A stretch of DNA of 64,000 nucleotides from Escherichia phage 236Ecol005PP (PP434423.1); one strand, 5' to 3'; shown: positions 5,800-61,654, counted from the stretch's first letter. Made by a program: numbers and translations. The notes: generated by a model not told the origin, from the sequence alone.

Positions 5800-6081
5800 T
5801 TAATTGAACAGTGGAGCGATGCGTTTCAGAAGAGTAGCAGCACCTTTGGCGAATTTTACATCATGAAAAACAGTTTCTTCTTCTGTTACAACACGAACTT
5901 TAATGTTTTCACAATCCCAATTTTTGCGAACAATCTTCAAAAGCTGCAGTAAATCTTTACATTCAGCAATATCGATAACACATCCACGAGAATCTTCCAT
6001 TATCGCACGATAACCATAAGCCATACTATAATCGTTGAAAGACTGTTCGATGATAATTAAGTTTTCCATTTTATTCTCCAA
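5800..6081 (-). CDS. hypothetical protein
   Basis: 93-aa ORF with GGAG SD; conserved early leader TTGGAGAATAAAATG. Confidence 0.5.
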   Translation of the reverse strand: MENKMENLIIIEQSFNDYSMAYGYRAIMEDSRGCVIDIAECKDLLQLLKIVRKNWDCENIKVRVVTEEETVFHDVKFAKGAATLLKRIAPLFN

Positions 6082-6166
6082 GTTGTTTTCTGTATCAGTA
6101 GTTGATATTGATATAGTACCATAATCAACTACTGATGTATATAGTTTTATGAAAAAATTTTAAACT

Positions 6167-14390: not shown

Positions 14391-14596
14391 TACAAAAAGC
14401 CTCTTTTGAATTCAACTTGCTTCTCGCCATAATCATATCGAATCTCTGCATTAAATTCGACAGAACCATCTGCATACATCATAAATGAATGCACAATAAC
14501 TTCTGTAGACCATGGCTGTAGTTCATATTTCTTCATTACATGCCGTGAAATGATAATATCTAAATCTTCATTTGGTTTAATCCAGCGATTTAACAT
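14390..14596 (-). CDS. hypothetical protein
   Basis: 68-aa ORF with GAGGAG SD, directly downstream of early promoter. Confidence 0.5.
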   Translation of the reverse strand: MLNRWIKPNEDLDIIISRHVMKKYELQPWSTEVIVHSFMMYADGSVEFNAEIRYDYGEKQVEFKRGFL

Positions 14597-14619
14597 AGTG
14601 CTCTCCTCTATAAGATAAT

Positions 14620-14655
14620 TCTATTATACCATACTCATTTTGGAAAGTAAACCGG
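14620..14655 (-). promoter_or_regulatory. T4-type early promoter (GTTTAC / TATAAT)
   Basis: plus gtaaac 14647-14652, attata 14623-14628. Confidence 0.55.
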
Positions 14656-14662
14656 TAAAATG

Positions 14663-14687
14663 AAAAAAGGACTCCCGAAGGAGTCCT
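14663..14687 (-). terminator. rho-independent terminator after soc (UUCG hairpin plus U-run)
   Basis: ggactcc-cgaa-ggagtcc with A-run on plus strand. Confidence 0.6.
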
Positions 14688-14694
14688 TGAATTA

Positions 14695-19025: not shown

Positions 19026-19083
19026 AACAATCTCCTCATTTAACCAACAAGACTACTATACCATAGTCTTGTCAGCTTGTAAA

Positions 19084-24569: not shown

Positions 24570-24947
24570 TCACTTAGTCAAATTTTTTACACATAAATTA
24601 TAAGAATTTACTACATACTCCATCGGAGCATTTTTACCAGTACGCCACTGGTAATTATTAGCCCAATTTGCCCAAAGTTCTGCACAGTAGTTTTCAATTT
24701 TTTCTTCGCGTGTAATTACATCCGAATTACGATATGCTTGAGCAGATTCATCTGGACGAATAGCTTCGTCAAAATTCGCCTGCATTTGTTCTACTGTCTG
24801 TTTTGGAGCTTCTTTATAACACTTGACATTAGGATTATAAAATTTGCTTGAACAGTTTACAATTTTTCCTACATCAGACTGATTTACTACCGGTCCTTGA
24901 GCTACACAACCAGCAAGACCTAATGCAATAACCAAAATAGCGATTTT
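24570..24947 (-). CDS. putative lipoprotein
   Basis: 125 aa from ATG at 24947 (MKIAILVIALGLAGC lipobox); GGAG SD. Confidence 0.5.
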   Translation of the reverse strand, partial: KIAILVIALGLAGCVAQGPVVNQSDVGKIVNCSSKFYNPNVKCYKEAPKQTVEQMQANFDEAIRPDESAQAYRNSDVITREEKIENYCAELWANWANNYQWRTGKNAPMEYVVNSYNLCVKNLTK

Positions 24948-24984
24948 CATTTCATTCTCCAAATCCGTATCAGTAGTTGATAGT

Positions 24985-25020
24985 TGTATAGTACCACAGA
25001 GGAACGGTCTTGTAAACAGT
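24985..25020 (-). promoter_or_regulatory. T4-type early promoter (GTTTAC / TACTAT) with conserved upstream AAAATTTTTTCACAAA
   Basis: plus gtaaac 25012-25017, atagta 24988-24993. Confidence 0.55.
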
Positions 25021-25098
25021 TTTGTGAAAAAATTTTTAATGAATTCACAGGGCCCAGAATCATCTATTTTTCCTAAGTATAGATTTATATTACTTGTA

Positions 25099-25121
25099 TG
25101 AAAAAGGGACCTGGAGGTCCC
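25099..25121 (-). terminator. rho-independent terminator after gene 43
   Basis: gggacc-tgga-ggtccc hairpin with A-run on plus strand. Confidence 0.55.
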
Positions 25122-25134
25122 TAGATTTATTCTA

Positions 25135-27831
25135 TCAGCCAAACAGGAAGTCTAACGAAGCTTTTTCTTCATAGTCCATGCCAGCCGATTCACACATACC
25201 AGCAAGCGGTTTAACAAACGATTTTTGGAACAAAGTTGAGTAGTCAATCCAAGATAGTACGTCAGAACGAATTTCTTTTGGAAGTTCTGTGCCTGATGGC
25301 CAAGCAATGCACTTGTCACCAAATGGATTTCCTTCACGTAATGGAAGAACCATTACCTTATTTCCATCCAAAATTGGAGCTACACCTAAACCGCTAACAG
25401 CTCGACGATAAGTTAGCACACCACGAATATGGAACGGACATTTAAATCCTGGCCAACCTTTATCATCATATTTCGCTATATCGTTCGCAGTTTTTACTTC
25501 AGCAATAACTTTATAGTCAAGTTGACGATATTCTTTCTCAAAGTTCTTGTAGTATTCTTGGACAGACTCTTCACCTTCCTGAAGAATACGACGAATACTT
25601 TCTTCGAGAGCTTCTTGTACTGCTTTTGGTGTTGAACTCTGTTGAGTTTCCATACCCATGATTTTTAGATGTGGTTCAGCAAATCGCTTATCTTCCATAT
25701 CATAAACGTTCAGAGCATAACGTTTTTTCGCTTTCCAAAATCCACCAACACCCTTTGAACCAAGCGGAGGGCAAGAAATAGCTTCACGGTCCATATGCAT
25801 CAGATGCTCACGGTTATTCATATAATCACATAACTCACGATATGCAACATCAATCATAGGTTCCATCTTTTTCTTACCAAACTGATTCATGAATTCAACT
25901 AAATCATTTTGTTCTTTAAAGCGGTCAAGACCTACTTTTTCAATTACTTTATCTACACAAACATATACCGAATCAGTATCACCTGCTGCGATGAAATCTT
26001 CACCATCAGTTCCACACACTTTATTTAGATATTCATTAATTTTACGAGCAATCCACTGAATACCGACTTGACCGAAAATTGTGATAGCAGTAGCATTTCG
26101 CAAATCATAGTAACGGAAATGAATATTACCAAGAGCACCATAAAGACTGTTGATAAGAATTTTACGGTTCAGCTGATTTGTGTTAGCGAGTGTAGCAGCT
26201 TTTTCACATTCTTCGATCAGACTATTAAGAACAGATTCGGTGTAATTCGATAATTCGTTTAAGAAATCATCATTGAACTTAACATATCGTTCAACTTCTG
26301 GTTTAGTTGAACAAGACCCTGCACCTTTCATAATAATCTTTTTAATAGCTTCGGCATTCATTTCTTCAGCGAACATTTTCTTTTTCCAATCTTTACGCTG
26401 GAAAAATACTTTAGCGATTTCCTTTGGAATGATACCTTCTTGGTGCTTATCATACATCCATCCATTCGGAGAACAAGAATATTCATCACTTGGCTTAGGA
26501 GCTGTTCCTGCGATATATTCATGAATTGGATGAACTTTGAACTGTCCACGAATAGTCTCAGGACTAATGTTAACCTGACGAATAATGCTAGGATACAGAG
26601 ACGTCAAGTCAAAACTCATAATGTATCGACGAGCAATCGGTTTAGGTTCAAACACAAATGCACCTGGAAAACTTTGTTTAACGTGCGAACCTTGTTGAGG
26701 AATAACCTTGTGTTCACCTTTCAATGAGTTAAAAATAATAGCATCCCAAGTTTTAATAGGACTCATTACACCAGAAAAAGGCATTTTAGCATAATAAGAC
26801 ATACTTAAAACTAGATCGATAAACCCACGAATTTTATCAATTGCTTGAACTGATTCTACGTCAATGATGTTATAACTAATGTATCGTTGATGATTAGTCT
26901 CACGAAGTTTATTAATAGGACCGTCGTATGGTAATTTACCTTTTTTGGTTTCATGTTGAGCAACTGATTCCAAAGAGAATGACGGCAAATTAGTAAATGC
27001 GAATTTCTTGTACAAATCTAAATAATCAAGAATAGATACGCCATCAATAGAATAAATTTCTTTGCTACCGTACACATTTTGAATTAGTTTAGATTTTACC
27101 CGACCGATTGGAGAGAAACGTTTCATACTGCGTTCGCCGAGAACCATTTTAACGCGATTCATGATATACGGAACGTCAAATCCCTCAATATTCCAACCGG
27201 TAAAAATAGCCGGTCGTTTCTGTTCCCAGAGATTAATATATTCCATGAGCATATCACGCTCATTATCGAATGGCATATAAATTACTCGGTCAAGAATTTC
27301 TTGAGGAACTTCATCACCACCTTCACAGTCAAGCTTAGCAGCTAACTTTGCATCCCATTTTGATACTGAACCGTACATTGAATTCAACAAATCAAAGACG
27401 TAAAAACGGTCGTCAATTGAATCATAATGAGTGATAGCATCAATTTCATATTCTGCTTTCATTGGGTCAGGAAATTTATCGCCAGTAACCTCAATGTCAC
27501 AGTTAGCTACACGAACAAATTTTCGGTCATAAACAATTTCTGAACCATACGTATCACTGATATAAGCGAGTTTAAAATCGTTCATACCGAGAGCTTCGAG
27601 ACCGATGTCTTCCATTCGCTTCATCCAGTCTCGTGCATCTTTCATTGATGGAAATTTTTGAGGAGCACAATTTTTACCATAAATGTCTTTGTATTTTGAC
27701 TCTTCCTTACAATGCCTAAACATAGTCGGAAGATATTCTACTTCGCGAGTACGTTCCTTTCCATTTTCATCAATATAACGTTCAACAATATTATTTCCGA
27801 CTGTTTCGATAGAGATATAAAATTCTTTCAT
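25135..27831 (-). CDS. 43: DNA polymerase (family B) with 3'-5' exonuclease
   Basis: 898 aa; exo and pol motifs (YGG, DTDS). Confidence 0.95.
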   Translation of the reverse strand: MKEFYISIETVGNNIVERYIDENGKERTREVEYLPTMFRHCKEESKYKDIYGKNCAPQKFPSMKDARDWMKRMEDIGLEALGMNDFKLAYISDTYGSEIVYDRKFVRVANCDIEVTGDKFPDPMKAEYEIDAITHYDSIDDRFYVFDLLNSMYGSVSKWDAKLAAKLDCEGGDEVPQEILDRVIYMPFDNERDMLMEYINLWEQKRPAIFTGWNIEGFDVPYIMNRVKMVLGERSMKRFSPIGRVKSKLIQNVYGSKEIYSIDGVSILDYLDLYKKFAFTNLPSFSLESVAQHETKKGKLPYDGPINKLRETNHQRYISYNIIDVESVQAIDKIRGFIDLVLSMSYYAKMPFSGVMSPIKTWDAIIFNSLKGEHKVIPQQGSHVKQSFPGAFVFEPKPIARRYIMSFDLTSLYPSIIRQVNISPETIRGQFKVHPIHEYIAGTAPKPSDEYSCSPNGWMYDKHQEGIIPKEIAKVFFQRKDWKKKMFAEEMNAEAIKKIIMKGAGSCSTKPEVERYVKFNDDFLNELSNYTESVLNSLIEECEKAATLANTNQLNRKILINSLYGALGNIHFRYYDLRNATAITIFGQVGIQWIARKINEYLNKVCGTDGEDFIAAGDTDSVYVCVDKVIEKVGLDRFKEQNDLVEFMNQFGKKKMEPMIDVAYRELCDYMNNREHLMHMDREAISCPPLGSKGVGGFWKAKKRYALNVYDMEDKRFAEPHLKIMGMETQQSSTPKAVQEALEESIRRILQEGEESVQEYYKNFEKEYRQLDYKVIAEVKTANDIAKYDDKGWPGFKCPFHIRGVLTYRRAVSGLGVAPILDGNKVMVLPLREGNPFGDKCIAWPSGTELPKEIRSDVLSWIDYSTLFQKSFVKPLAGMCESAGMDYEEKASLDFLFG

Positions 27832-33370: not shown

Positions 33371-34386
33371 TGTGTTGCCTCTACATATAGCTGATTTGCA
33401 TATTGAATAAGTGCTTCGCGGTCAGAATCAGTGATGTCTGGAATTGCATTAATGTATTCTTCCATCAACGTCTGAAGAGATTGAACTTCAACTTCTTCAC
33501 TATCATCTGACTCGACAGAGTTATCAATCTTTGACACAACTCGTAATGAATGCACAACTTTTTCTAGTTCAGATTCGAACTTCGTTAGATTTTTGTCTAC
33601 TTCAGTTACTATAACACGTACTGATAGATTTGTAAAATCTTTATAGTCAATTTTTCCCTTAAATGGATATTGAATTCGACGATGCCAGGTAGTGTTGTTT
33701 GGAATAAATTCCATTCGTTCTGTTTCTGTATCAAACATCCAGAACCCGCGAGGGTCATTCTCGTCACCTGCAGTTAGTGTCCATGGTGTCCCAATATATC
33801 TGACGTTAGCAGCCTCAGAGATAGTATGGAAGTGACCAGACCACACCTCTTTATAAGTCTTAAGGAAATCAGGTTCAAGACCGTGAGATTTCATTCCTTT
33901 ATAAAAATAAAATCCATTCAGCTCCCAGTGACCAACACAAAAAGAAGCAGATGAAGTTTTGATGTGTTCAAGAATTTCACCAGTATTTTCTTCGCACATC
34001 CAAGGAATTAAATCAATCAAACATCCGTCAAAATCTACTGTAGTAGGCTTATCATATACTTTAACATTAGGATATTTAGCCAAAAGCTCAGTAGAAGCAT
34101 TTGGATGCATTACATTTTTATAGTGGAGATCGTGATTTCCTACAATAGTATGTAATGTGATTCCAGCGGCATCAAGCATTTGAACTATTTCACGAGCAAA
34201 CTCCATAGTTTTATGCGTGATCGCTTTTCGTACATCAAAAATATCACCGTATTGAATCCATGTAGTAATTCCATTTTTCTTAGAATATTCTATCGCTTGT
34301 TTAATTCCATCAATTTGAATACCGCGAATCCATTCATCATCAGCTTTAACGCCTAAATGCCAATCACCCAAGTTTAGTATTTTCAT
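33367..34386 (-). CDS. 47: recombination nuclease subunit (Mre11/SbcD-like phosphoesterase)
   Basis: 339 aa; MKILNLGDWHLG and GNHD phosphoesterase motifs. Confidence 0.9.
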   Translation of the reverse strand: MKILNLGDWHLGVKADDEWIRGIQIDGIKQAIEYSKKNGITTWIQYGDIFDVRKAITHKTMEFAREIVQMLDAAGITLHTIVGNHDLHYKNVMHPNASTELLAKYPNVKVYDKPTTVDFDGCLIDLIPWMCEENTGEILEHIKTSSASFCVGHWELNGFYFYKGMKSHGLEPDFLKTYKEVWSGHFHTISEAANVRYIGTPWTLTAGDENDPRGFWMFDTETERMEFIPNNTTWHRRIQYPFKGKIDYKDFTNLSVRVIVTEVDKNLTKFESELEKVVHSLRVVSKIDNSVESDDSEEVEVQSLQTLMEEYINAIPDITDSDREALIQYANQLYVEATQ

Positions 34387-34987
34387 GGTGTCTTTTCCAT
34401 CCTAATTTAGCTGCTTTTGAAACTAGTTCTTTAATTTTTCCTTTTGTCCATTCAGGACCAGGAGGTTCATGACATAACATTTGCTTAACTCCGTTATTAT
34501 ACCATTTTTTACCTTTATTATGTGATGAAGCTTTAAATTTATTTGACCTTCCTTTTACATAACCTTCTGGAATATACGGTAAAAAGGCAGATTTTCCTGT
34601 TAATGGGTCATGTGAATGTATGTTTCCTTTACAATTATGAGAACCATATAATGGATGATTTTGTCCTTTAATATCTCTTCCAAATGAACCTTTTGGAGCA
34701 GCATATGACATATTAAAGAATAATGGATTTTTAACCGCATTATGCAAACGTTGATAATATAGCTCGCATTTAATAGCTTCTTCGCGCGTATCAAATTCAT
34801 CTAAAATGCATGAATCAAATAAATGTGGGTTATTTGAAAGTTCTTCATTATAAATTTTCTTATACTTTTTAGATAAAACTGATCCATGATAGCCGGCTAA
34901 ATGCCTATCTAAAGATGTAGATCCAATATAAAAAGGAGGAAGTTTATCTCCACTATATATTGTTAAATAAGTTATATATTTTTTCAT
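34364..34987 (-). CDS. GIY-YIG homing endonuclease (Seg-like)
   Basis: 207 aa; LTIY ... FYIGST GIY-YIG motif; C-terminal KKWYNNG motif. Confidence 0.65.
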   Translation of the reverse strand: MKKYITYLTIYSGDKLPPFYIGSTSLDRHLAGYHGSVLSKKYKKIYNEELSNNPHLFDSCILDEFDTREEAIKCELYYQRLHNAVKNPLFFNMSYAAPKGSFGRDIKGQNHPLYGSHNCKGNIHSHDPLTGKSAFLPYIPEGYVKGRSNKFKASSHNKGKKWYNNGVKQMLCHEPPGPEWTKGKIKELVSKAAKLGWKRHHENTKLG

Positions 34988-35147
34988 ATATCAAGAACCG
35001 TCATTGAAATGCAAAATAAAATTATTGAAATAAATCCATCTGGAGTACTAAAGAACCCAATCCAACATGCTCTAGCAAATAGATAAAATGCAAGAAAAAG
35101 TATCACATATCCAAGAAATATCATTATATCAAACTCCATATAAAGCT

Positions 35148-35165
35148 AAAGGGCCGAAGCCCTTT
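35148..35165 (-). terminator. UUCG-tetraloop hairpin after agt
   Basis: aaagggc-cgaa-gcccttt overlapping agt stop codon. Confidence 0.45.
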
Positions 35166-36366
35166 ATTTTGTAATAATGTCAAACTGTTCTTTAAAGCAG
35201 AAGCTTGAATCTTGGTGCTGATACAAAAATTCATAAGCTTTTTCACGTTCACGGTCATAAAGAGCTCGGTCAGATGACAGTTCTTTAATACGTTCGAGTG
35301 TCGATTCCATGTCATTTTCATCAAACCAAATGATACCGCTATCATGCGAGGTCAAAGGAGTATTATCAACACGGAATTTCAAATTATCACCCGTTGATTT
35401 CCAGAAAACAGGAATTGTACCACAAGCACCTAATTCAAGATGAGTATATTCGAGTGAGCGTTGTAAGTATTTCTGGTTAAGTTTACTCAACTGATATCCA
35501 AAGCCAGATTTACTCATTCGTTCAAGCATTTCACTATTAATATAACAATCTAGGATTTGTGCCGGTTGATTCGGCGCGAGATTCATTTTATCAATCTCAC
35601 GATTACCGTAATATTCATGCGGAATACCTTTTTCCTTAATTGCAATAAAAGCAGGGGAACGTTCAAGACCTTCCATTACAGTGGATTTACCAGCAGGTTT
35701 TAAGAATTTTTCATGAAAATCAAACATCTGATAAAAACCTTTCCATGTAGTCGTACGACCAATCCAACGGTTGATGTTCATGTTAATTTCAGAAACATCT
35801 TTCCAATAAGTTGACCGAACCTTCGCAATATCCATAGGAGGCTGAAAATTATATACTGTTGGTGCTTCTTCAATATCATCAAACAGAGAAACAGTTTCTG
35901 GATACCATTCTTTCATCAGAACTTTATTAAAATCACCATTATCAGAATGGCTAAAAATAACATCAGCTCGACGAACAGTTTCTTCTAATCCCAAATTTCG
36001 ACGCAAAGAAAGCACAGAATGATCATGCTGATAAACTACAACACGAATAGAAGGTTTAATATTATCTAAGAGTTTTTTATAGTTATTAATCGTAGCTTCT
36101 TGAACGGAAGTAGCAGGAACAGAATTAATAATTAGAATATCACAATCATTAATCAATTTAAGTGCTTTATCGTATTCTTTAGCTAAAATAACTGGAATTG
36201 AAAATGATTTGTGGTCATGAGAACTTGTACGAGTAAATGATTTATCTTTAGCATAAACCAGAGTTACTTCATGACCATTTTTAATGAACCAATCACGTTG
36301 CTCAAGAGAAAATTTAGTTACGCCGCAACCTTCAAGACCCCGAGCCATAAAAATGCATACTTTCAT
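35164..36366 (-). CDS. agt: DNA alpha-glucosyltransferase
   Basis: 400 aa; sequence MKVCIFMARGLEGCGVTKFSLEQRDWF... matches recalled T4 Agt. Confidence 0.9.
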   Translation of the reverse strand: MKVCIFMARGLEGCGVTKFSLEQRDWFIKNGHEVTLVYAKDKSFTRTSSHDHKSFSIPVILAKEYDKALKLINDCDILIINSVPATSVQEATINNYKKLLDNIKPSIRVVVYQHDHSVLSLRRNLGLEETVRRADVIFSHSDNGDFNKVLMKEWYPETVSLFDDIEEAPTVYNFQPPMDIAKVRSTYWKDVSEINMNINRWIGRTTTWKGFYQMFDFHEKFLKPAGKSTVMEGLERSPAFIAIKEKGIPHEYYGNREIDKMNLAPNQPAQILDCYINSEMLERMSKSGFGYQLSKLNQKYLQRSLEYTHLELGACGTIPVFWKSTGDNLKFRVDNTPLTSHDSGIIWFDENDMESTLERIKELSSDRALYDREREKAYEFLYQHQDSSFCFKEQFDIITK

Positions 36367-39002: not shown

Positions 39003-39218
39003 TTAAATTTTCCAGTTACCGTTTTCATCAATGAATTTAATCCAGTCATTTACTGACCACTTGGTCGTATCGCCTTTTGGAGCAACATTTAAAGTGTATA
39101 ATCCTTGTTTAAAAAGCATACGTTTGATATTCATATTTTCCTCAGCTGTAACGATAACACTCGTTTGATTTACGTTTAGCAACTCGTTGAGAAGTATTGT
39201 AATCAAAATCATCGTCAA
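39003..39218 (-). CDS. hypothetical protein
   Basis: 71-aa ORF. Confidence 0.45.
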   Translation of the reverse strand: MTMILITILLNELLNVNQTSVIVTAEENMNIKRMLFKQGLYTLNVAPKGDTTKWSVNDWIKFIDENGNWKI

Positions 39219-39435
39219 TGTAAACTGATTTTTTCAACTTTCTTACTTCACTACGTAATTGACGATTTAGCTCATCTTTAACTTCTGAATCAATGCCTTT
39301 CATTCTACGCCATTTATCAGAGCGAAAAATGTTTTCAACCATATCTTTATGACTTACACCATCAGGAGCTTTACGCTTTCCGAAATAGTCATAATCACGT
39401 ACTTTTAAATCTTTACGACGATACGTTTTACCCAT
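39142..39435 (-). CDS. hypothetical basic protein
   Basis: ORF from ATG at 39435 (MGKTYRRKDLK...). Confidence 0.4.
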   Translation of the reverse strand: MGKTYRRKDLKVRDYDYFGKRKAPDGVSHKDMVENIFRSDKWRRMKGIDSEVKDELNRQLRSEVRKLKKSVYIDDDFDYNTSQRVAKRKSNECYRYS

Positions 39436-39604
39436 GGAGTTTAATTTCCTTAGCAACTGAACTAAATACAGCACGGTCACAAATCATGCGTTTGTTCCAT
39501 TTAAGTACAGTATAATGAACATCTAGATCATCTACTGCTGTAACAATAACAATATGTCCGTTAACACGATAATACTGGTCCCTTTTAATCTCTTTATCAA
39601 CCAT
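39428..39604 (-). CDS. small hypothetical protein (sub-threshold ORF)
   Basis: 58 aa MVDKEIKRDQYYRVNGHIVIV... Confidence 0.3.
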   Translation of the reverse strand: MVDKEIKRDQYYRVNGHIVIVTAVDDLDVHYTVLKWNKRMICDRAVFSSVAKEIKLHG

Positions 39605-39631
39605 ATCAATTCCTCAAAGGCAATTCATATG

Positions 39632-39667
39632 TTAATAATACCACAGTTTGAACTTCTTGTAAACAAC
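39632..39667 (-). promoter_or_regulatory. T4-type early promoter (GTTTAC / TATTAT)
   Basis: plus gtaaac 39659-39664, ataata 39635-39640. Confidence 0.45.
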
Positions 39668-39762
39668 TTTGTGAAAATTATTTTAGGGAATGATAAGAAG
39701 GGAACGATAGCTTAGAATGGTAATATACAGAATGTGAGAAAGAAAGGCCCAGAGGGCCCGTC

Positions 39763-41172: not shown

Positions 41173-42448
41173 TGGTGTTTAACCCTATGCATGATTTCTT
41201 TATTTTTGCCGAGATTAAATCCACGTTCGTTCGGATTTCCCAAATAACCACAAGTTCTTCTTATTGTGTTCATCTTTTTAGGATCAGTTTCTCCACAAAT
41301 AGAACAAACAAATCCGTTTTCAGTAGGAGTCATTTCATGAGTGCTTCCACACGTAAAACATTTATCTACTGGCATGTTAACACCAAAATAATCTAAATGT
41401 TGTGCAGCATAATCCCATACAGCCTCAAGACCTTTTAGGTTATTTTTCATATCAGGAAGTTCAACATAAGAAATGTGACCGCCTGTTGCAATGAAATGAT
41501 ACGGGGCTTCGCGAGAAATCTTTTCAAACGGAGTAATATTTTCTTCTACTGAAACGTGGAAACTGTTAGTGTACCAGCCTTTATCAGTAACATCCTTTAC
41601 ACTTCCATATTTTTCTGTATCAAGTTTACAGAAGCGATAGCAAAGGTTTTCAGCAGGAGTAGAATACAAGCTAAAAGCAAAACCGGTTCTTTCAGTCCAC
41701 TGCTTAAGACGAGCATTCATTTTAGTTAAAATTTCCTGTCCAATATCACGACCGACAAGAATATTCAATTCGTGAATACCAATGTATCCTAGGGACACTG
41801 AACTTCTACCGTTTTTAAATAACTCAATTATGTCGTCATCAGGTTTAAGACGAACCCCGAATGCACCTTCTTGGTAAAGAATAGGAGCAACAGTCGCTTT
41901 AACTCCTTTTAAGGAACTAATTCTACACATCAATGCTTCAAAACACAAATCCATTCGTTCATTGAACAATTCGGCAAATTTCTGTTCATTGAACTGTGTT
42001 CCAATATAAGAATCTAATGCAATACGAGGAAGATTCAGTGTTACAACACCAAGATTATTACGTCCATCAAGAATTTCATTACCAGTCGAATCTTTCCATA
42101 CGCCCAAGAAACTACGGCAACCCATTGGAGAAACAGGAATAGATGAACCAGTGATAGCTTTATTGTTCTTAGCTGAAATAATATCAGGATACATTCTTTT
42201 ACTTGCACACTCTAGAGCAAGCTGCTTAATATCATAGTTCGGATCGTCTTTATAAAGATTAACACCTTCTTCAACGAACATAACAAGTTTAGGGAAAATA
42301 GGAGTTATCCCATCACGACCAAGACCTTTAATACGATTTTTCAGAATTGCTTTCTGAATCATTCGTTCAGTCCAGTCAGTTCCCGTACCAAATGTAATTG
42401 TTACAAAAGGCGTTTGTCCGTTAGAGCTGAAAAGTGTATTTACTTCAT
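41169..42448 (-). CDS. nrdD: anaerobic ribonucleotide reductase NrdD, exon 2 (boundary approximate)
   Basis: glycyl-radical enzyme C-terminal region with C-terminal Cys cluster; 3' splice site placed after a G at 42449 so exon1+exon2 = 605 aa. Confidence 0.65.
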
Positions 42449-42474
42449 CATTATATTCAGCATGAGTCGCAAAT

Positions 42475-43246
42475 TCATGCCCGTTTATATGAAACAACAA
42501 AATTTGGATAGTCCATAGATATGCAACGTTCTTTTATAGTGCTAGGATGAAAATTTAGCGCTTTAGCTGCTTCTATATAAGACGTATACTTAATACCGTC
42601 AACAACCACATATTCAGGAACTTTATGAATAGTAGCCTTAATACTCAAAACAAGAGGATGAGTTTCGACTTCACTTTCAGTGCAATTTAAATATTCCGCT
42701 GCTTTTTTAAAACTTCTAAAAGTTTTATTTTTAAGCTTTATCGATACTTGTTTTTTACTTTTTCGACTATTGATATTATTTTGCACATGTTCCTTAGATC
42801 TTCCGTTTTTAGCATAATATTCAGCTACAGAAGATTTTATATTGTTTTTATGAGATTCGGATAACACTTTACCCTTATGAGCATCTCTTAATTTTTGAAT
42901 ATGTTCCTTCAGTATCCGGATGCTTATAAAACTTTTTACCGCCTATGGATTTATTTAAACATTTTTTGCTATAAAAATATTTACGTATGACCTCTTCTTC
43001 ATGTTTTAATGCATCTTTATAACTATCAAATGTTTTTAAAATTATCCATTTAGTAGGTGTATCAGTTTTTAAGCGTTCATTTATATACTTAGATGACGTT
43101 GTGTAAGTTTTCCAGTTTGTGGGCTTGTTTTTAATTGTTCTAAATTTTTTATAACCGATATAAATGTCGCCATTAGAAAACTTAACTAAGTATGTAAATG
43201 CGTCTTTATCTTTTATTTTAGTACAACGTCTTTTTATCCATTTCAT
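42475..43246 (-). pseudogene. intron-encoded GIY-YIG homing endonuclease (I-TevII-like), apparent frameshift near 42925-42935
   Basis: N-terminal GIY-YIG ORF (123 aa) and C-terminal ORF in adjacent frame; joined length about 257 aa; shift at GGTAAAAAGTTTT run. Confidence 0.55.
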
Positions 43247-43275
43247 TGTTTCACCTCGTATTCATAAGATAATCT

Positions 43276-43283
43276 TATTTATA
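43276..43283 (-). promoter_or_regulatory. late promoter TATAAATA inside intron, upstream of endonuclease ORF
   Basis: plus tatttata about 30 nt upstream of ORF ATG at 43246. Confidence 0.5.
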
Positions 43284-43494
43284 CAAGATGACTGCTGCAT
43301 GTCGCCATGCAGATTAGACTATATCTTCATCTTTCGATGCCGGCCGTTTCGAATAGCATTAGCTTCTATTCTACACCGCTACATTCATCACGGTTAGTCG
43401 TTAGGCATTTAGTTCAAAAGAACATTTAGCACGGGATTGTCTACTAGAGAGGTTCCCCGTTTAGACCGGTTTTACATGAGCCTGAATTAAATTA

Positions 43495-44032
43495 ACTCAT
43501 ACGCCTGGAATGCATCGTATACATCTTTTTCTGTTTTAGATTGGGCATAATTCAATGCATCTGCGATTTGCCATTTTTCCGCGTCCTCAATATGTTTCGC
43601 ATAGGTGCGTTTAACATAAGGAGAAAGTACTTTATCTACATTCGCAAAAGTCGTTCCGCCATATTGATGAGAAGCAACCTGTGCAGTAATTTGTGCCATA
43701 ATTGCAGTAGCAACGCCGATTGATTTAGGGGTTTCAATCTGTGCATTACCGAGCTTAAATCCGTTCTCAAGCATTCCTTTTAAATCTACTAAACAACAAT
43801 TAGTAAATGGAAGAGCAGGGGAATAATCAATATCGTGGAAATGGATAATTCCGCTTTCATGCGCTTTCATAATAAAAGACGGGACCATATTTTTGGCAAT
43901 GTGTTTAGACACAATACCAGCCATAAGGTCCCGTTGAGTTGGAAAAACACGAGAATCTTTATTAGCATTCTCGTTTAAAAGGTCTTTATTAGTTTTATGA
44001 ATCAATCCTTCAATTTCTTTTTCAATTGTCAT
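43495..44032 (-). CDS. nrdD: anaerobic ribonucleotide reductase NrdD, exon 1 (boundary approximate)
   Basis: N-terminal 179 codons; in-frame stop lies just inside intron. Confidence 0.65.
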
Positions 44033-45182: not shown

Positions 45183-45287
45183 TTATGTCATTTATTGTAG
45201 GTTCATTATATACTGTTTCTTCATCAGTGTAAACCGGTTCTTCCGGCTCTGGCTCTACTGTTTCCCATCTAGCCGCCCACCAGGGTT

Positions 45288-48796: not shown

Positions 48797-48832
48797 AACA
48801 TTATACCACATCCTTGTGGCAAAGTAAACTAG
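48797..48832 (-). promoter_or_regulatory. T4-type early promoter, near-identical to the one at 2415-2450
   Basis: plus gtaaac 48824-48829, attata 48800-48805; palindromic spacer ccacaaggatgtgg. Confidence 0.55.
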
Positions 48833-51232: not shown

Positions 51233-51760
51233 TTATGCGAGTACCGTCTTTAACCGTTCTTCAAACTTCCGAAGAGTATTTTGGCGTTCAGCTCTTTGCT
51301 TTTTGTAAGTTTCAATACGCTCTGAAATGAGAGTGTATCGTTCATTTACTGATTCTTTCATAAAATCAGGAATTTCACGAGAAGCTTTAATCTCATCAAA
51401 TTTATCAATAACAGCTTGCTCTTCAGCAATTAAGTTATCATACATTAAAATATCTTTCTTGATGAACTCAATATCTTCTTGAGTTACACGAGATAATTTA
51501 GATGCTTTATCCTTTTTGTACTGTTCGTTAGTATCACGAGACCAGTGTAATGTACGATTTTTATTCGTATTCTTGTAAATTTCTACAATACCAATTTCAT
51601 CAATAATAACGATCCAATTCCAACGGGATTTGTAAATTTGTCCTCCATCAACTGTGATTTCACCTCCGATTGAGATGTCGTTAAAGAACTTACTCTGTGC
51701 TTCAGATTTAAATTTACCATCGTTGTAATTTACCAAGTTGAAAATATCTTTAGCGTTCAT
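51233..51760 (-). CDS. hypothetical protein
   Basis: 175-aa ORF with GGAGG SD directly downstream of early promoter. Confidence 0.5.
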   Translation of the reverse strand: MNAKDIFNLVNYNDGKFKSEAQSKFFNDISIGGEITVDGGQIYKSRWNWIVIIDEIGIVEIYKNTNKNRTLHWSRDTNEQYKKDKASKLSRVTQEDIEFIKKDILMYDNLIAEEQAVIDKFDEIKASREIPDFMKESVNERYTLISERIETYKKQRAERQNTLRKFEERLKTVLA

Positions 51761-51785
51761 TTTGTGTTCCTCCGTAGTTGATAGT

Positions 51786-51821
51786 TGTATAGTACCACAG
51801 AGGAACAGTCTTGTAAACCAC
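51786..51821 (-). promoter_or_regulatory. T4-type early promoter (GTTTAC / TACTAT)
   Basis: plus gtaaac 51813-51818, atagta 51789-51794. Confidence 0.5.
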
Positions 51822-52206: not shown

Positions 52207-52926
52207 TTAGGATTCTTCTAAATGTCTTTTCTGAAAAGTTGATACCATACTACGATACGGTTCATTTGGATATCCGTGTTTTATAGCTTCCTTTGTAAAT
52301 TTTCTCCATCCATATTTAGTTTCTTTCCAAAGCTCGAATAATTCATCTTCATACTGCCATATAGTTAAATGAGAACGCTTTGCAGCTTTAATTCCATTAA
52401 TATGCTTTTCTTTTACTGCAGGATTGCTTAGTTTCTTTTTAATAATATTACTAACTTTTCTAACAAAAACTGGGTCCTTATATCGTTGCGAAGTTTTTAT
52501 TGAAGTGTTTAATTTAACTTCCGGCGTGGATGTAACCTCTTTCATCTTTTTCTTCATATGCTGTATATGATTAGGATTTTTCCATAAATTTATAGAATGC
52601 TTTTTGCATTTTATCCTAGTTTCATCTGCAACCTTTCCTCCTTCACCCCCGTATGACAGGTTAACACAGTTTTTTCCATATTTCAATTTACCTGCCATGA
52701 TATATAATATTTCAGCTTGTACCATTTTATCATAATTATCAAAAACTTCTAAAACCGTTTTTGATAATATGTGGTCATTTGACACTTTTACACGTTCTAT
52801 ATAATTTCCACTACCAACATACGAATCATTGATGTTATTAGTTATATGTCGACCATAATAGTATTTCTTAATACCTGTCTTTAAATTTAATATTTCAGTT
52901 TTATAGATAGTAAAATATTTTTTCAT
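52207..52926 (-). CDS. GIY-YIG homing endonuclease-like protein
   Basis: 239 aa; KYYYGRH ... SYVGSG motif and basic C-terminal half. Confidence 0.55.
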   Translation of the reverse strand: MKKYFTIYKTEILNLKTGIKKYYYGRHITNNINDSYVGSGNYIERVKVSNDHILSKTVLEVFDNYDKMVQAEILYIMAGKLKYGKNCVNLSYGGEGGKVADETRIKCKKHSINLWKNPNHIQHMKKKMKEVTSTPEVKLNTSIKTSQRYKDPVFVRKVSNIIKKKLSNPAVKEKHINGIKAAKRSHLTIWQYEDELFELWKETKYGWRKFTKEAIKHGYPNEPYRSMVSTFQKRHLEES

Positions 52927-53891
52927 TTTAATAATACCGTTTCAGCAATTTCTTCCCAACCGTTTTTGTCGGTCATAATAAAGTCAGCAAGATAAAGAGC
53001 AGTACGCAGTGAAACATTGCGTAAACGATTAACATTGACTTTCATCCATGATAATGCTTTATAAGTTTCTTCATCAGAAAGACCGCGCTTTTGCATCATG
53101 TCGGTTGAAAGAATAACATCTTCAACCCTGACCATAATTTCTTCATTAGTGTGAACACCCAAATCCAAATAAACTGAGCGGGACACTAATGCTTGTAAGT
53201 GTGGGGCAAGTTTAGTACCACGGTCTAATTCGCGGTCAATGTCAACGTTTGTGATAAAAACAATCGTTCCTTTAAATTCAAACTCACGGTCAATGCCTTT
53301 TTCTTCTAAGTAAGAAGATGCAGTGCTCCAGCAGACTTTACGGGTCTCTCCAGTGTCCAGAGCAGCTTTTAGAAGATTAAGAATGTCCATATCAGAGAAA
53401 ACATCCACATCATCAATCAAAAGGACAGAATTCTCTTCACGATTATTCCAAAGCTGCTCATAAAGACCAATACCAGAGATTTTACCATTAATGCTTTTAT
53501 ATTCAATGTATCCAATATCATTTGCTTTATTTAAAGCTTTATCTAAAGAATACGTTTTACCAATACCTGCTGCGCCAGAGATAATTAATGAACGAATATT
53601 TCCATTAATAATACCATTCGTCATCATTCCCATAACATTAAATCTTTTATTAATGCGGGTTTTCATATCTTCATATGATTCTTTAACTTCTTCAACTTTT
53701 ACACCATCATATGAAATATCTGATTTGTAAACCCAAACACCGCGACGTTTACCGTCAATTTCAACAAAAACTTTACCATCTCCTTGTGCATCTACCGGAG
53801 CATTATCTGGGAACCATTCGCCTAAGAGCTCAAAAGTTCCAGAGATTTCTTTACCGAAGTAGATACCCTTATTGATAGTTACAGTTTTCAT
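52923..53891 (-). CDS. P-loop ATPase (AAA-like)
   Basis: 322 aa from ATG at 53891 (GGAG SD); Walker A GAAGIGKT, Walker B LLIDDVD. Confidence 0.6.
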   Translation of the reverse strand: MKTVTINKGIYFGKEISGTFELLGEWFPDNAPVDAQGDGKVFVEIDGKRRGVWVYKSDISYDGVKVEEVKESYEDMKTRINKRFNVMGMMTNGIINGNIRSLIISGAAGIGKTYSLDKALNKANDIGYIEYKSINGKISGIGLYEQLWNNREENSVLLIDDVDVFSDMDILNLLKAALDTGETRKVCWSTASSYLEEKGIDREFEFKGTIVFITNVDIDRELDRGTKLAPHLQALVSRSVYLDLGVHTNEEIMVRVEDVILSTDMMQKRGLSDEETYKALSWMKVNVNRLRNVSLRTALYLADFIMTDKNGWEEIAETVLLK

Positions 53892-53922
53892 TTTATTCTC
53901 CAAATCCGTATCAGTTGATAGT

Positions 53923-53958
53923 TGTATAGTACCATAAAGCTTTATGCTTGTAAACCGT
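53923..53958 (-). promoter_or_regulatory. T4-type early promoter (GTTTAC / TACTAT)
   Basis: plus gtaaac 53950-53955, atagta 53926-53931. Confidence 0.55.
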
Positions 53959-53980
53959 TTTGTGAAAAAATTTTTGAAAT

Positions 53981-54005
53981 AAAAAAAGGGAGCCCGAAGG
54001 CTCCC
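53981..54005 (-). terminator. rho-independent terminator (UUCG hairpin plus U-run)
   Basis: gggagcc-cgaa-ggctccc preceded by A-run on plus strand. Confidence 0.55.
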
Positions 54006-54007
54006 TA

Positions 54008-55021: not shown

Positions 55022-55479
55022 TCAGCCTTATATTCAATAACAGGACATACTTTAGCTTTACGCGCTTTTAAAAATTCGACGATAATAGATTTCTTGGGTT
55101 GAATAGGAGGTAAACCTTTATACGCCCTATCAATATTTTCTACATGTAAAGCATAATCCTTTTTCCATTTATAATCTTTATATTTTTCATGCAATTGTGC
55201 AGGAATAACAAATGAACCAATAATAAGTAAAACAAGCAAAATAGCAAGTATAAATGCTGATGGAATAAGAGTCCATAAACTACCAAAAATAAGCCATTTC
55301 TGTATGATTTCTGCACAGATGATAGTTAGACCTGCGAGTATAGTACATCCGAAAAAAGAAACGAAAAATGTAGGAATGACAATAGACCAAAAGTATGCAC
55401 ATAGTGTCTTAGGTCGTTTCCATTCATCATTAAACATTTTGAATAATTTATAGTGCCAAGAGCTTTCATTAATAATCAT
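55018..55479 (-). CDS. membrane protein
   Basis: 153 aa, three to four predicted TM segments. Confidence 0.5.
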   Translation of the reverse strand: MIINESSWHYKLFKMFNDEWKRPKTLCAYFWSIVIPTFFVSFFGCTILAGLTIICAEIIQKWLIFGSLWTLIPSAFILAILLVLLIIGSFVIPAQLHEKYKDYKWKKDYALHVENIDRAYKGLPPIQPKKSIIVEFLKARKAKVCPVIEYKAE

Positions 55480-55481
55480 AA

Positions 55482-56003
55482 TTATCCTTTCATTGAAGGT
55501 GTAACAGTTGTTAAATACTTAATCATAGCTTCAGCTTCTGATTTTGATAATGAAATTTCTCCATTGTTTTGACGAATAGAAATAAAATCCGGATGACGGT
55601 CACCACCAGCTTTTAAAATACACATATAAGTATCAGTTTCATCTTCAATATCTGAAATGATTGAAGCAGTTCCGCATGAATGTGGTTTTTGATAAATCAA
55701 TGCAGCTTTTCTTCCACCGTTTGACTGTTCATAAACTTTTAACACATCAAACAAATCGCTTCTTTTATCAATAGCTAAGATGTTGTTTTCATCTTCAATG
55801 TTAAATCCTTCGGATACTTCATAAAGTGTCACCCATAAATCGCCAATATCAATGACAGCATTCACCTTTCCATGATTTTCAAGAGCATTACAAATTTTCT
55901 TGATTTCGTCATAACTCATTTTAATAATATCATCTCCTTGAATAAGGAAGATGTCATTTTTAAATTCAACACGAATTAAACCGCTTTCACTTGAAATAAA
56001 CAT
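55482..56003 (-). CDS. hypothetical protein (tandem paralog 1)
   Basis: 173 aa; C-terminal motif shared with next ORF. Confidence 0.5.
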   Translation of the reverse strand: MFISSESGLIRVEFKNDIFLIQGDDIIKMSYDEIKKICNALENHGKVNAVIDIGDLWVTLYEVSEGFNIEDENNILAIDKRSDLFDVLKVYEQSNGGRKAALIYQKPHSCGTASIISDIEDETDTYMCILKAGGDRHPDFISIRQNNGEISLSKSEAEAMIKYLTTVTPSMKG

Positions 56004-56576: not shown

Positions 56577-56709
56577 AATTACATACTCCTTTGAATAATA
56601 TCAATAATGTTGTTCACTAGATTATAAGTAAACATTGGGTGATAATATTGAATCATCACATACACAACAAACAAAATTTTCATTCTCTTCTCCTTGGCAG
56701 TTGACAAGA

Positions 56710-56743
56710 TTACTATATCATAACCTTGCCAACTTGTAAACCA
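56710..56743 (-). promoter_or_regulatory. T4-type early promoter (GTTTAC / TATAGT)
   Basis: plus gtaaac 56736-56741, actata 56712-56717. Confidence 0.4.
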
Positions 56744-56899
56744 TTAAATGACGTTTTCAATAAAATTCTGAAGCTTTGTGTGAGCATCAACCATGATTTT
56801 CATTTCTTCCTTTGCGAAAGCTGTACCTCTTTCACGAGAAGAATACTCATAGTCAGAAACTGCATTAGCGTATTCTTCAATTAGCTTCATTAAAAACAT
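56744..56899 (-). CDS. small hypothetical protein (sub-threshold ORF)
   Basis: 51 aa MFLMKLIEEYANAVSDYEYSS... Confidence 0.3.
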   Translation of the reverse strand: MFLMKLIEEYANAVSDYEYSSRERGTAFAKEEMKIMVDAHTKLQNFIENVI

Positions 56900-57307: not shown

Positions 57308-57492
57308 TATTCCACCACATATGAAAGAGAGAATATTGCACACGCCATATGAATTGCAGCTTCATCACACATATCATAACGTTTCTTAAGAAGTTCTACA
57401 AGTTCTTCACTAGTAACTTCATCCATGTCGACGAAAAAATCACCATTAATGATGACGTAGATATTTCCTTCTTGATTAAGTGCTTCAATTTT
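57307..57492 (-). CDS. hypothetical protein
   Basis: 61 aa from ATG at 57492 ([10 protein letters not shown]) with GAGGAG SD, downstream of early promoter. Confidence 0.4.
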
Positions 57493-57520
57493 CATGATGT
57501 TCTCCTCTTTATCCGATGGT

Positions 57521-57556
57521 TGTATAGTATCACAGCTCAAATGGAAAGTAAACCGG
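57521..57556 (-). promoter_or_regulatory. T4-type early promoter (GTTTAC / TACTAT)
   Basis: plus gtaaac 57548-57553, atagta 57524-57529. Confidence 0.55.
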
Positions 57557-57563
57557 TAAAATG

Positions 57564-57585
57564 AAAAAAGTCTCCCGAAGGAGAC
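57564..57585 (-). terminator. rho-independent terminator (UUCG hairpin plus U-run)
   Basis: gtctcc-cgaa-ggagac preceded by A-run on plus strand. Confidence 0.55.
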
Positions 57586-57590
57586 TAATG

Positions 57591-59125: not shown

Positions 59126-59332
59126 TTAAAGCGTATTCACATAAGCTATTAATTCGTTTTCTTTCTTATCAAACCGGTCAGCAAATTCTTCTTGCTGTTC
59201 GGGAGATAGCGGGCCGTATTCATCATAAAAGGTGTTTGCTTCTGTATGCTCATCTAGAAGTTCATGGATAAGCTCAAACAATTTATCTTTTTGTTCTTTA
59301 CTCAGACTCATAACCATGTAACCTTTAAGCAA
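59126..59332 (-). CDS. hypothetical protein
   Basis: 68-aa ORF. Confidence 0.4.
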   Translation of the reverse strand: MLKGYMVMSLSKEQKDKLFELIHELLDEHTEANTFYDEYGPLSPEQQEEFADRFDKKENELIAYVNTL

Positions 59333-60854: not shown

Positions 60855-61316
60855 TCATTGAGTTTTAATTACTGCTTTAGAAGCCTTTCCTGGTAAACGA
60901 CGACTGTTGATAATTGCCATCCTACACTGAAGTGACGGGTCTTTGAACTTCGCATTAGGTTTACAAACTGTAAATCCAAGCCAAAGATTTCCATCTGTGA
61001 TTTCTAAACGTCCAGGACGATATTCAACCCCATCAATAAAATCCTCGTCAATGTCAGGACGCGGAGGCATACTCAGGAATTCATTAACTTCTAAAACATG
61101 GTCTTTTATTTTGTGGAATAATTCAAAAACATATGTCTCATCAATCTCCCGCTGAATTGCACGATCAAGAAGATGCTGAGAATATTTTAGATGAAACGAT
61201 GAGACTCCTGCTGCTTTTGATGCCTCACGAATCTCATTGTTAATTTGACGAAACTCCGACTCAAAGTGACGACGGAGCTTATTTCGACGGATAAAAACTT
61301 CTGTGTTGATAGTCAT
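60855..61316 (-). CDS. regB: RegB endoribonuclease
   Basis: 153 aa; size and position; preceded by early promoter. Confidence 0.75.
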   Translation of the reverse strand: MTINTEVFIRRNKLRRHFESEFRQINNEIREASKAAGVSSFHLKYSQHLLDRAIQREIDETYVFELFHKIKDHVLEVNEFLSMPPRPDIDEDFIDGVEYRPGRLEITDGNLWLGFTVCKPNAKFKDPSLQCRMAIINSRRLPGKASKAVIKTQ

Positions 61317-61340
61317 GTTATTCTCCTCTTAACTGATAGA

Positions 61341-61376
61341 AAAATTATACTACAGTCAAGAGGAAAAGTAAACAGT
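61341..61376 (-). promoter_or_regulatory. T4-type early promoter (GTTTAC / TATAAT) upstream of regB
   Basis: plus gtaaac 61368-61373, attata 61344-61349. Confidence 0.5.
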
Positions 61377-61654
61377 TATTCTTTAAATCTAATCAATTTA
61401 TTCATAGACTTTGTAACTTCTGCACGAACCTCATGTAGGTTTTTAAGCTGTTCAAGACGTTGCTCATAGTAAGCAATTTCATCTTCTTCGAGACAGTCCT
61501 GCGAATCTTCTTTAAGATAACGCGCATAGTCCTGGAAAGCTTTACGGACTACTTCCTGGAAGTCATCAAGACTTTGAATTTTCTTAGGAGCAACAGATAC
61601 ACGACGAGGGGCAGTATAATACTCATAACCAAACCCTGCGCTTAATTGAGCCAT
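61376..61654 (-). CDS. hypothetical protein
   Basis: ORF from internal ATG at 61654. Confidence 0.4.

Follow-up and report, generated by a model that had tools for sequence, protein, structure and literature searches.

What is the hairpin-and-promoter module that separates nrdC.11 from nrdC.10 in Escherichia phage 236Ecol005PP (PP434423.1), and are the repeats that it shares with other sites only regulatory signals, or are they also places at which small genes are exchanged? The window, as we call the whole 64,000-nucleotide stretch of DNA analysed here, covers the opening 64 kb of a Tequatrovirus genome, from rIIA onwards. Its position 1 is position 1 of RB32 (rIIA), it is collinear with RB32 and T4 throughout by local blastn, and its minus strand carries all of its genes. 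The 3-kb region around the focal site, at 53.9k, has matches in 785 phage records, the best being Tequatrovirus (T4-like) at 96-98% identity; the annotations of RB32 and T4 place nrdC.11 upstream and nrdC.10 downstream of the site, on the minus strand. The T4 orthologues of the sites lie at T4 55,079-55,677 and 26,963-27,222. Neither NC_000866 nor AF158101 has a promoter or terminator feature at these sites, and no Rfam family matches anywhere in the window, which is thus without known structured RNA. It seems very likely to us that the elements are T4-type early promoters, several of them directly behind a predicted terminator, that the composite is the published T4/PST-type PeSL, and that its conserved blocks act as crossover points. 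The regulatory interpretation is already published for Tequatrovirus, and so is the hypothesis that PeSLs recombine.

On the minus strand the focal interval matches its description in the first-pass annotation: a hairpin, a T-run, an upstream element, GTTTAC, TACTAT and a leader. The nrdC.11 stop codon (54010-54008) is followed, 2 nt on, by a predicted intrinsic-terminator hairpin, AGGGAGCC-UUCG-GGCUCCCU in RNA and AGGGAGCC-TTCG-GGCTCCCT in DNA (53987..54006), and by a U7 run (T7 in DNA; 53987-53981). As RNA the hairpin folds at -17.1 kcal/mol (z = -3.7), and none of 200 shuffles is equally stable. Next comes an A/T-rich, UP-element-like block, TTTTTTATTTCAAAAATTTTTTCACAAAACG (53956..53986), inside which lies the 16-mer upstream element AAAATTTTTTCACAAA (53974-53959); together with the -35, this block is the 35-nt direct repeat that borders a unit called D in phages T2 and FT. 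The core early promoter (53926..53955) reads TTTACA-17-TACTAT with TG present. Its -35, GTTTAC, occupies 53955-53950 and its -10, TACTAT, 53931-53926, the latter preceded by TGG (TGn); the 18-nt spacer between them contains an AT-rich palindrome of 14 nt, CATAAAGCTTTATG, and ends in that TGG. The leader ACAACTATCAACTGATACGGATTTGGAGAATAAA with the nrdC.10 ATG spans 53889..53925. It is 35 nt long, ends in TTGGAGAATAAAATG, and includes GGAGAATAAAA, the Shine-Dalgarno of nrdC.10 (53901-53891), with the ATG at 53891. This leader sequence recurs at the 25.0k locus and also before an unrelated ORF in the phage locus L011. The depositors of Yersinia phage fPS-90 annotated a 'terminator' and a 'predicted early promoter' at the orthologous site.

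All seven sites that had been listed as copies are present where they were placed, on the minus strand. Four besides the focal one combine hairpin and promoter (the gene named first in each pair lies upstream). The 25.0k cassette, between gene 43 and imm.1 (24947..25122), has a hairpin with loop UCCA and then a T-run (25122-25105; -12.0 kcal/mol, z = -3.2), the upstream element at 25036-25021, GTTTAC at 25017-25012, TACTAT at 24993-24988 and an ATG at 24950; its spacer appears to have been converted to the type found at 51.8k. The 57.5k cassette, between rI.-1 and mobD.5 (57492..57586), has a UUCG hairpin with T-run (57586-57569; -10.8 kcal/mol, z = -5.05), GTTTAC at 57553-57548, TACTAT at 57529-57524 and an ATG at 57495, and shares 29 identical nucleotides with the 14.6k copy. 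The latter, between soc and mrh.2 (14593..14688), likewise has a UUCG hairpin with T-run (14688-14667; -15.1 kcal/mol, z = -4.9), followed by GTTTAC at 14652-14647, TATAAT at 14628-14623 and an ATG at 14596. At 39.7k, between nrdH and 55.6 (39601..39762), the hairpin has loop UCU and a weaker, C/U-rich tail (about 39759-39745; -15.7 kcal/mol, z = -3.5), and there follow a degenerate upstream element (39683-39668), GTTTAC (39664-39659), TATTAT (39640-39635) and an ATG at 39604. The remaining two are promoter-only 'half' copies without a terminator. One stands at 51.8k between nrdC.9 and nrdC.8 (51757..51818), with a -35 at 51818-51813 that abuts the nrdC.9 stop, TACTAT at 51794-51789 and an ATG at 51760. 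The other, weaker one stands at 6.1k between motB and a small ORF before cef (6066..6161); it has the upstream element with one mismatch (6161-6146), a degenerate -35, ATATAC (6142-6137), TGG-TACTAT with the -10 at 6118-6113, GGAGAATAAAA at 6079-6069 and an ATG at 6069.

The resemblance among the copies is real and patchier than the first-pass annotation had it. The UUCG tetraloop holds for three of the five hairpins and fails at 25.0k and 39.7k. Of the 16-mer upstream element, exact copies stand only at 25.0k and 53.9k; the 39.7k version differs at three positions, and 14.6k, 57.5k and 51.8k lack it, which leaves it in 3-4 of the seven copies. A UP-like AAAATTTTTTCACAAA is found at 53.9k, 25.0k and, with its single mismatch, 6.1k. 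A near-identical leader ending TTGGAGAAT(A/G)AAATG, described as frequent, occurs at three of the seven sites and not at the remainder. TGG precedes the -10 at 53.9k, 25.0k, 51.8k, 39.7k, 14.6k and 6.1k, and TGA does so at 57.5k. The claim that the copies are dispersed repeats as well as regulatory sites stands: 48 nt agree at 96% between 24970-25017 and 51771-51818, 29 nt at 100% between 14641-14669 and 57542-57570, and blocks of 29-31 nt at 97% between the 25.0k and 53.9k copies. The example offered for it, 24961-25030 against 53890-53960, is out of register and only 79% identical over the overlap, where an unrelated spacer and a 3-nt indel stand between identical blocks. Across 522 records, a 261-bp query taken from the 25.0k copy finds 3-5 places per genome.

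The window has about 18 early promoters, of which the listed copies turn out to be the subset most like one another; about 11 further promoters of the same type lie at 2.4k, 6.7k, 7.8k, 11.2k, 12.5k, 18.6k, 19.1k, 39.2k, 45.2k, 48.8k, 56.7k and 61.4k. The pattern GTTTAC-N18-TAnnnT occurs 18 times in the window, always on the minus strand, against 0.90 +/- 0.92 in shuffled sequence, and none of 100 shuffles reaches 18; for 16-17 of the 18 matches, a Shine-Dalgarno and ATG follow 26-45 nt downstream on the same strand. Because a scan with the generic sigma-70 consensus shows no enrichment in this AT-rich DNA (89 matches against 85.5 +/- 9.7 shuffled), it cannot support the observation, and the extended T4 motif was used instead. 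A hairpin with T-run lies no more than 90 nt upstream of five promoters (14.6k, 25.0k, 39.7k, 53.9k and 57.5k), the five hairpins ranging from -10.8 to -17.1 kcal/mol with z = -3.2 to -5.1, and terminator-like sites in 44-64 kb number 21 against 9.6 +/- 3.2 in shuffles, about a twofold excess. Within the focal, 25.0k and 51.8k promoters themselves, no significant structure is seen (z = +0.46, -0.33 and +1.12).

These sites carry what is expected of T4-type promoters, namely TTTACW, a 17-nt spacer, TAYWAT, TGn, an A/T-rich UP region and a co-oriented early gene downstream, and five of them carry the sequence marks of a terminator, with a stem-loop, a U-run and a stop codon upstream. T4 early promoters are of a UP/-35/TGn/-10 'uber' type: their consensus is extended, and they win out over host promoters (Hinton 2010, PMC2988021). 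Judging from this literature and the sequence, host sigma-70 RNA polymerase, unmodified or Alt-modified, would start about 7 nt downstream of the -10 as soon as infection begins, and the promoter would drive the gene that begins 26-45 nt downstream through a GGAG Shine-Dalgarno. At the five sites with an upstream hairpin and U-run, the focal one among them, the preceding transcription unit would end there; since a Rho-independent terminator would then stand before the promoter, the downstream gene block should be transcriptionally insulated. The end of the focal leader, GGAGAATAAAA, matches GGAGRAYARAA, the strong RegB/S1 cleavage consensus (GG*AGRAYARAA; PMC3014915), at 11 of 11 positions, and could serve both as ribosome-binding site and as an optimal RegB/S1 site at which cleavage would switch early mRNAs off within minutes. 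The 11-mer is exact at 53.9k and 6.1k; at 25.0k the window departs from it at one position, and relatives carry it unchanged. We reject it as a statistically supported motif, since the window holds two exact copies against 0.44 expected (p about 0.09), and keep it as a plausible inference. In relatives whose nrdC.10 proteins are 60-78% identical, GGAGAATAAAATG is retained upstream of the gene, which a RegB constraint on the leader would explain; such a constraint is plausible.

A second class of promoter, absent from the first-pass list, has strong stems that straddle the -10, at 6729, 19084, 56741 and 61373 (-19 to -24 kcal/mol, z = -3.3 to -5.5); in the stem at 61373 the Shine-Dalgarno lies within the 3' arm. 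Among 37 nrdC.10 loci, 35 have a promoter-associated stem: 18 have it upstream, 11 have it spanning the -10, and in six (the RB49-like group, L031-L037) it spans the -35. The sequences of the stem arms are unrelated between lineages yet always pair, which suggests that these stems are under selection for structure. Their positions agree with the PeSL subclasses of Arbiol et al. (PMC2839356).

At the focal junction itself the recombination idea fares well. In the wider panel nrdC.11|nrdC.10 is among the most variable junctions, with 61 of 68 loci rearranged in 24 arrangements, and of 60 records sampled evenly from the 524 of Tequatrovirus, roughly one-third have an insert there of one to four extra small ORFs, in size classes of +33, +260, +430, +480, +620, +740 and +1358 bp. 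Read from one example per main size class, the inserts are composed of three promoter-led units: D, a 486-bp ORF with a period of 619 bp; AB, ORFs of 150 and 264 bp, B encoding a DUF4031 protein, with a period of 479 bp; and C, a 201-bp ORF with a period of 269 bp. They occur in six combinations with the order D-AB-C constant: none in the window and T4, D only in T2, AB only in fPS-90, C only in FriedrichZschokke, AB + C in slur03, and D + AB + C in vB_EcoM_FT. Direct repeats in the full FT array are spaced 619, 479 and 269 bp, the sizes of the units, and their sums reproduce the observed size classes.

The junctions can be placed within the repeats. The repeat that borders D extends over 53 nt at 87%, with a spacing of 619 bp in L118; its first 35 nt, TTTTTATTTCAAAAATTTTTCACAAAGTTGTTTAC, are identical and consist of the 16-mer upstream element plus the -35. 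A crossover inside this perfect repeat turns the T2 arrangement into that of the window and T4, in which the nrdC.11 terminator leads into the promoter body found ahead of A in FT. FriedrichZschokke is slur03 minus AB, joined within the common CTATCAAAACAAA, and the fPS-90 promoter that lies between B and nrdC.10 has its join within TTGGAGA, so that chimeric junctions fall in the UP/-35 repeat, in CTATCAAAACAAA and in TTGGAGA. One further allele (L004/SP21535) has lost the hairpin 3' arm and the -35 through a 3-nt microhomology. T4 recombination operates on short homologies, and Singer, in 1982, is reported by Arbiol et al. to have put the requirement under 50 bp. Since the blocks are identical over 13-35 nt, they could act as crossover points, with T4 general recombination on these homologies as the probable route. 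Exchange within the blocks appears to have added or removed whole promoter-led ORF units at nrdC.11|nrdC.10, both locally and between phage genera, and from these data the events may be read as insertions or as deletions. That small genes are gained and lost by recombination inside the promoter is, in our judgement, well supported at the focal site, and not for promoters in general; the same grade attaches to the cassette-crossover mechanism proposed for this array.

Two of the units have evidently moved between genera. Unit D is 95-96% identical in protein and 94% in DNA among loci whose flanking nrdC.10 is about 74-77% identical, and the patch of high identity runs from the -35 of D's own promoter to inside the leader of the next; in L011 this T4-type leader stands before an unrelated ORF, which it would drive. 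Units A and B are 94-96% identical in genomes in which nrdC.10 is 72-74% identical, and more diverged A/B-like pairs sit in a different slot in other phages, downstream of nrdC.10. The AB patch in L023 starts at an ATG that has no promoter, so not every boundary is a cassette.

At the scale of the window the picture is different. The window was compared, by chained blastn HSPs, with RB32, with part of T4 and with five or six closely related Tequatrovirus contigs from IMG/VR that tile it, and about 29 separate indels or replacements emerged. A promoter junction is touched by five of them, of which the focal cassette has two and 25.0k, 18.6k and 6.1k have one each; this amounts to about 0.26 events per promoter junction against a per-junction background of 0.24. 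In a synteny test anchored on stop codons in 108 IMG/VR loci, which counts arrangements and not events, junctions that bear a promoter are no more variable than others (broken fraction 0.50 against 0.48; Mann-Whitney p = 0.46). The proposal that indels concentrate at cassettes is rejected at this scale, and with it the expectation from the first-pass annotation that cassette-bounded ORFs would prove to be the variable ones in relatives; its suggestion that the cassettes are recombination substrates survives at the focal cassette, with its six unit combinations and its junctions in promoter blocks, but does not extend to the window as a whole. Between gene 43 and gene 55 (25-39 kb) lies a conserved block without early promoters; outside it the early region is plastic as a whole. 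We also rejected the polymorphisms at 25.0k and 6.1k as cassette-to-cassette exchange. Both are deletions through microhomology of 5-8 nt (ATGAAAAT or GAAAA) that remove ORF sequence behind the promoter: at 25.0k an ORF of ~80 aa was lost through ATGAAAAT between two start codons, and at 6.1k the deletion is internal to the ORF.

For about 24 of the 29 indels, neither edge carries an early promoter or a terminator. Among these are a seg-like (52944-52219) and a mobB-like homing-endonuclease gene, a replacement of mobD, the nrdD intron (43497-42448) and ORF-precise indels, and homing endonucleases together with microhomology deletions account for most differences in the 64-kb early region. On a rival account, promoters and terminators are passengers, as in a moron: homing endonucleases and illegitimate or microhomology recombination would drive gain and loss, the regulatory signals would travel with those insertions that survive because they are self-expressed and insulated, and cassette and unit boundaries would coincide without the cassettes causing exchange. 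The lack of enrichment at promoter junctions and the use of 3-8 nt microhomologies at several junctions fit this account. At the focal site it has to contend with unit-flanking repeats of perfect identity over 13-35 nt, with an empty allele that is exactly the product of a crossover in the 35-nt repeat, with a unit order preserved in all six combinations, and with high-identity patches between genera that end within promoter blocks. As the dominant explanation for the region we consider it somewhat unlikely.

Could the copies instead be alike merely through selection for the early-promoter, Shine-Dalgarno and RegB consensus, with no role in recombination? Each conserved block is indeed a known functional element (UP, -35, TGn/-10, and GGAG with the RegB consensus; PMC2988021, PMC3014915). 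The retention of GGAGAATAAAATG at low nrdC.10 identity and the absence of any excess of synteny breaks at promoter junctions agree with such convergence. It is the spacers that weaken it, for we know of no sequence requirement in promoter spacers, yet 17 of 18 positions are identical between unlinked promoters in two cases, 25.0k/51.8k and 2.4k/48.8k. In the window the 25.0k spacer, AAGACCGTTCCTCTGTGG, is identical at 18 of 18 positions to the 51.8k promoter allele of T4 and of contig c2932, and thus matches a paralogue and not its orthologues: those of T4 and six close relatives are different, with four changed positions in RB32 and c9101, the nearest. Only HMD-9, the nearest GenBank record (99.6%), has the same 25.0k spacer, and the chimeric allele finds no match in IMG/VR. 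This is best read as a short-patch ectopic conversion between promoters 26.8 kb apart, and contig c7500 has a similar patch between its 51.8k and nrdC.10 promoters; conversion of this kind would homogenise distant promoters. Convergence also does not predict focal indel sizes that equal the repeat periods or junctions that fall within the repeats, and we think it quite unlikely.

The least credible account, which we judge very improbable, makes the hairpin/UP block an att-like site for a phage-encoded protein acting in the manner of an integron: Arbiol et al. raised a dedicated system of this kind for RB49/phi1, where PeSL mini-circles were detected (PMC2839356), and the focal junction resembles an ordered cassette array, but the crossovers spread over at least three blocks (UP/-35, the +1 region and the Shine-Dalgarno) instead of one core site, the copies have different hairpin sequences, the annotation of the region includes no integrase-like gene, and T4 general recombination is sufficient in principle.

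We therefore return to the reading of these elements as T4/PST PeSLs whose conserved blocks serve as crossover points. The dispersed-repeat and recombination aspect of T4 promoters reportedly originates with Repoila in 1994, together with the PeSL papers, and Miller et al. are said to have covered T4 early promoters as well in 2003. The sites described here share the UP/-35/TGn/-10 design with T4 early promoters and are orthologous to them; the promoter literature treats them as regulatory sites. As described in the text of their paper, the T4/PST PeSLs of Comeau, Arbiol and Krisch (2014, Genome Biol Evol 6:1611; PMC4122927) consist of an AT-rich region, a TTTACW-N17-TAYWAT promoter with a stem-loop just upstream, and a Shine-Dalgarno and ATG at the 3' end, lie in hyperplastic early regions near indels, and are proposed to take part in homologous exchange. 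The label PeSL-like in the first-pass annotation was thus apt. The same architecture is present at 14.6k, 25.0k, 39.7k, 53.9k and 57.5k, and crossovers within the element are visible as chimeric junctions and as the spacer conversion. Genus, architecture, location near indels and proposed crossover role all agree, and nothing essential is different; the text of that paper mentions neither the nrdC.11|nrdC.10 array of D, AB and C nor the conversion of the 25.0k spacer to the 51.8k type, which are specific illustrations. The stems here begin AG... and end ...CT (AGGGAGCC/GGCTCCCT, AGTCTCC/GGAGACT, AGGGACC/GGTCCCT), and the consensus published for the PST pair, AGNA-loop-TCNT, is too loosely worded for scoring.

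The PeSLs of RB49/phi1 (Arbiol et al. 2010, Genome Biol Evol 2:140; PMC2839356) are of the same composite type and have the same kinds of junction, with crossovers between the -10 and the ATG, in the loop and in the AT-rich region. They are dispersed, conserved over about 100 bp, and differ in their boxes and in the placement of the stem: near-perfect TTGACA/TATAAT with polyG/polyC stems within or across the promoter, as against GTTTAC/TACTAT, an upstream UUCG hairpin and only a weak spacer palindrome (z = +0.46) at the focal site. Mini-circles were demonstrated in RB49/phi1. Arbiol et al. called the T-even elements analogues, not homologues, of the RB49 PeSLs (PMC2839356), and the focal element likewise appears to work like an RB49 PeSL without being its sequence homologue. 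Integron arrays and phage 'morons' are also small self-contained units at a fixed site with their own expression signals. Integrons depend on an integrase and attC, neither of which is present here, where general homology between regulatory sequences seems to be what exchange relies on; morons are usually regarded as illegitimate insertions that lack conserved flanks, unlike the focal units.

What the finding means may be stated at several levels. Phage engineers would find in the nrdC.11|nrdC.10 junction an insertion site that is permissive by nature and self-insulated. More tentatively, and we hold this to be doubtful, the promoter-associated stems may tell read-through RNA from promoter-initiated RNA, structured blocks may be preferred entry points for recombination, and hot spots may be recombinase-free cassette arrays. 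If so, read-through RNA, having both arms, would be folded and either attenuated or translationally masked, promoter-initiated RNA, having the 3' arm only, would stay open, and hot spots such as nrdC.11|nrdC.10 would exchange units between phage genera. The PeSL hypothesis itself is tempered, since promoters are not statistically special as breakpoints in the 64-kb early region. With many more genomes than were available in 2010-2014, it is also confirmed in its essential point that regulatory cassettes can be crossover points for small accessory genes in T4-like phages, and the focal array, with three units, six combinations and sizes that equal the repeat periods, provides a worked example.

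The spacer of the early promoter at the gene 43-imm.1 junction (window 24988-25017, minus strand) is identical to an allele of the type belonging to the early promoter at the nrdC.9-nrdC.8 junction (51789-51818, minus strand). The orthologous spacers of T4, RB32, and five further relatives differ from it, and the allele is common to phage HMD-9 only (PV287714 24163-24423). From these alignments, the gene 43-imm.1 spacer looks like the result of a recent short-patch ectopic conversion. A second pair of early promoters, 2418-2449 (upstream of rIIA.1) and 48800-48831 (upstream of nrdC.4), is 97% identical over 32 nt, with 46 kb lying between them, and the shared identity takes in the spacer hairpin CCACAAGGATGTGG.

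Exact GTTTAC-N18-TAnnnT sites also occur at 18552-18581, 39196-39225, and 45205-45234. One of the three is intergenic, lying upstream of sp with a weak -10 (TACTTT); the other two fall within coding sequence, the next start codon being 40-60 nt downstream. These sites may be functional internal early promoters, comparable to the copy at the nrdC.9-nrdC.8 junction.

The window holds a second class of early promoter, in which strong stems straddle the -10 hexamer, at four minus-strand sites (6660-6734, 19020-19089, 56690-56746, and 61310-61378; dG -18.9 to -23.7, z -3.3 to -5.5). In the 61373 promoter the Shine-Dalgarno sequence AAGAGGAG is part of the 3′ arm of the stem; masking is therefore possible in read-through RNA only. 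Across 37 nrdC.10 loci the stem is upstream, over the -10, or over the -35, depending on the locus, and the arm sequences are unrelated. UUCG hairpins also occur apart from early promoters: those at 4309-4339 (after 39.1) and 35140-35170 (after a-gt), both intergenic, share 87% identity with their flanks included, and neither has an adjacent early promoter.

Some differences among relatives are homing-endonuclease-type variation: a seg-like gene in the nrdC.10 to nrdC.9 interval (52207-52926; missing from T4 and four relatives), the nrdD intron (42448-43497; missing from RB32 and four relatives), and RB32ORF096c, which replaces T4 mobD (55022-55985). Between gene 47 and a-gt, a 594-bp segment that the window has (34386-34981) is missing from RB32 and from all five close IMG/VR contigs spanning the region; its edges carry neither promoter nor terminator. 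At 59307-59312, four close IMG/VR relatives are longer by approximately 367 bp, and a fifth arrangement has 740 bp in place of 190 bp. This appears to be a lineage-specific deletion in the window, and the boundary between genes where it lies has no cassette.

The promoter-led units D and AB of the nrdC.11-nrdC.10 junction are carried by phage vB_EcoM_FT (MT682710 160533-162591), and copies of units also occur at two further loci (L011, 8997-9707; L023, 9520-10004). Other phages have more diverged A/B-like pairs in a different slot, downstream of nrdC.10. Since the D and AB proteins are 94-96% identical where the neighboring nrdC.10 is only 72-77% identical, their sequences indicate transfer between genera.
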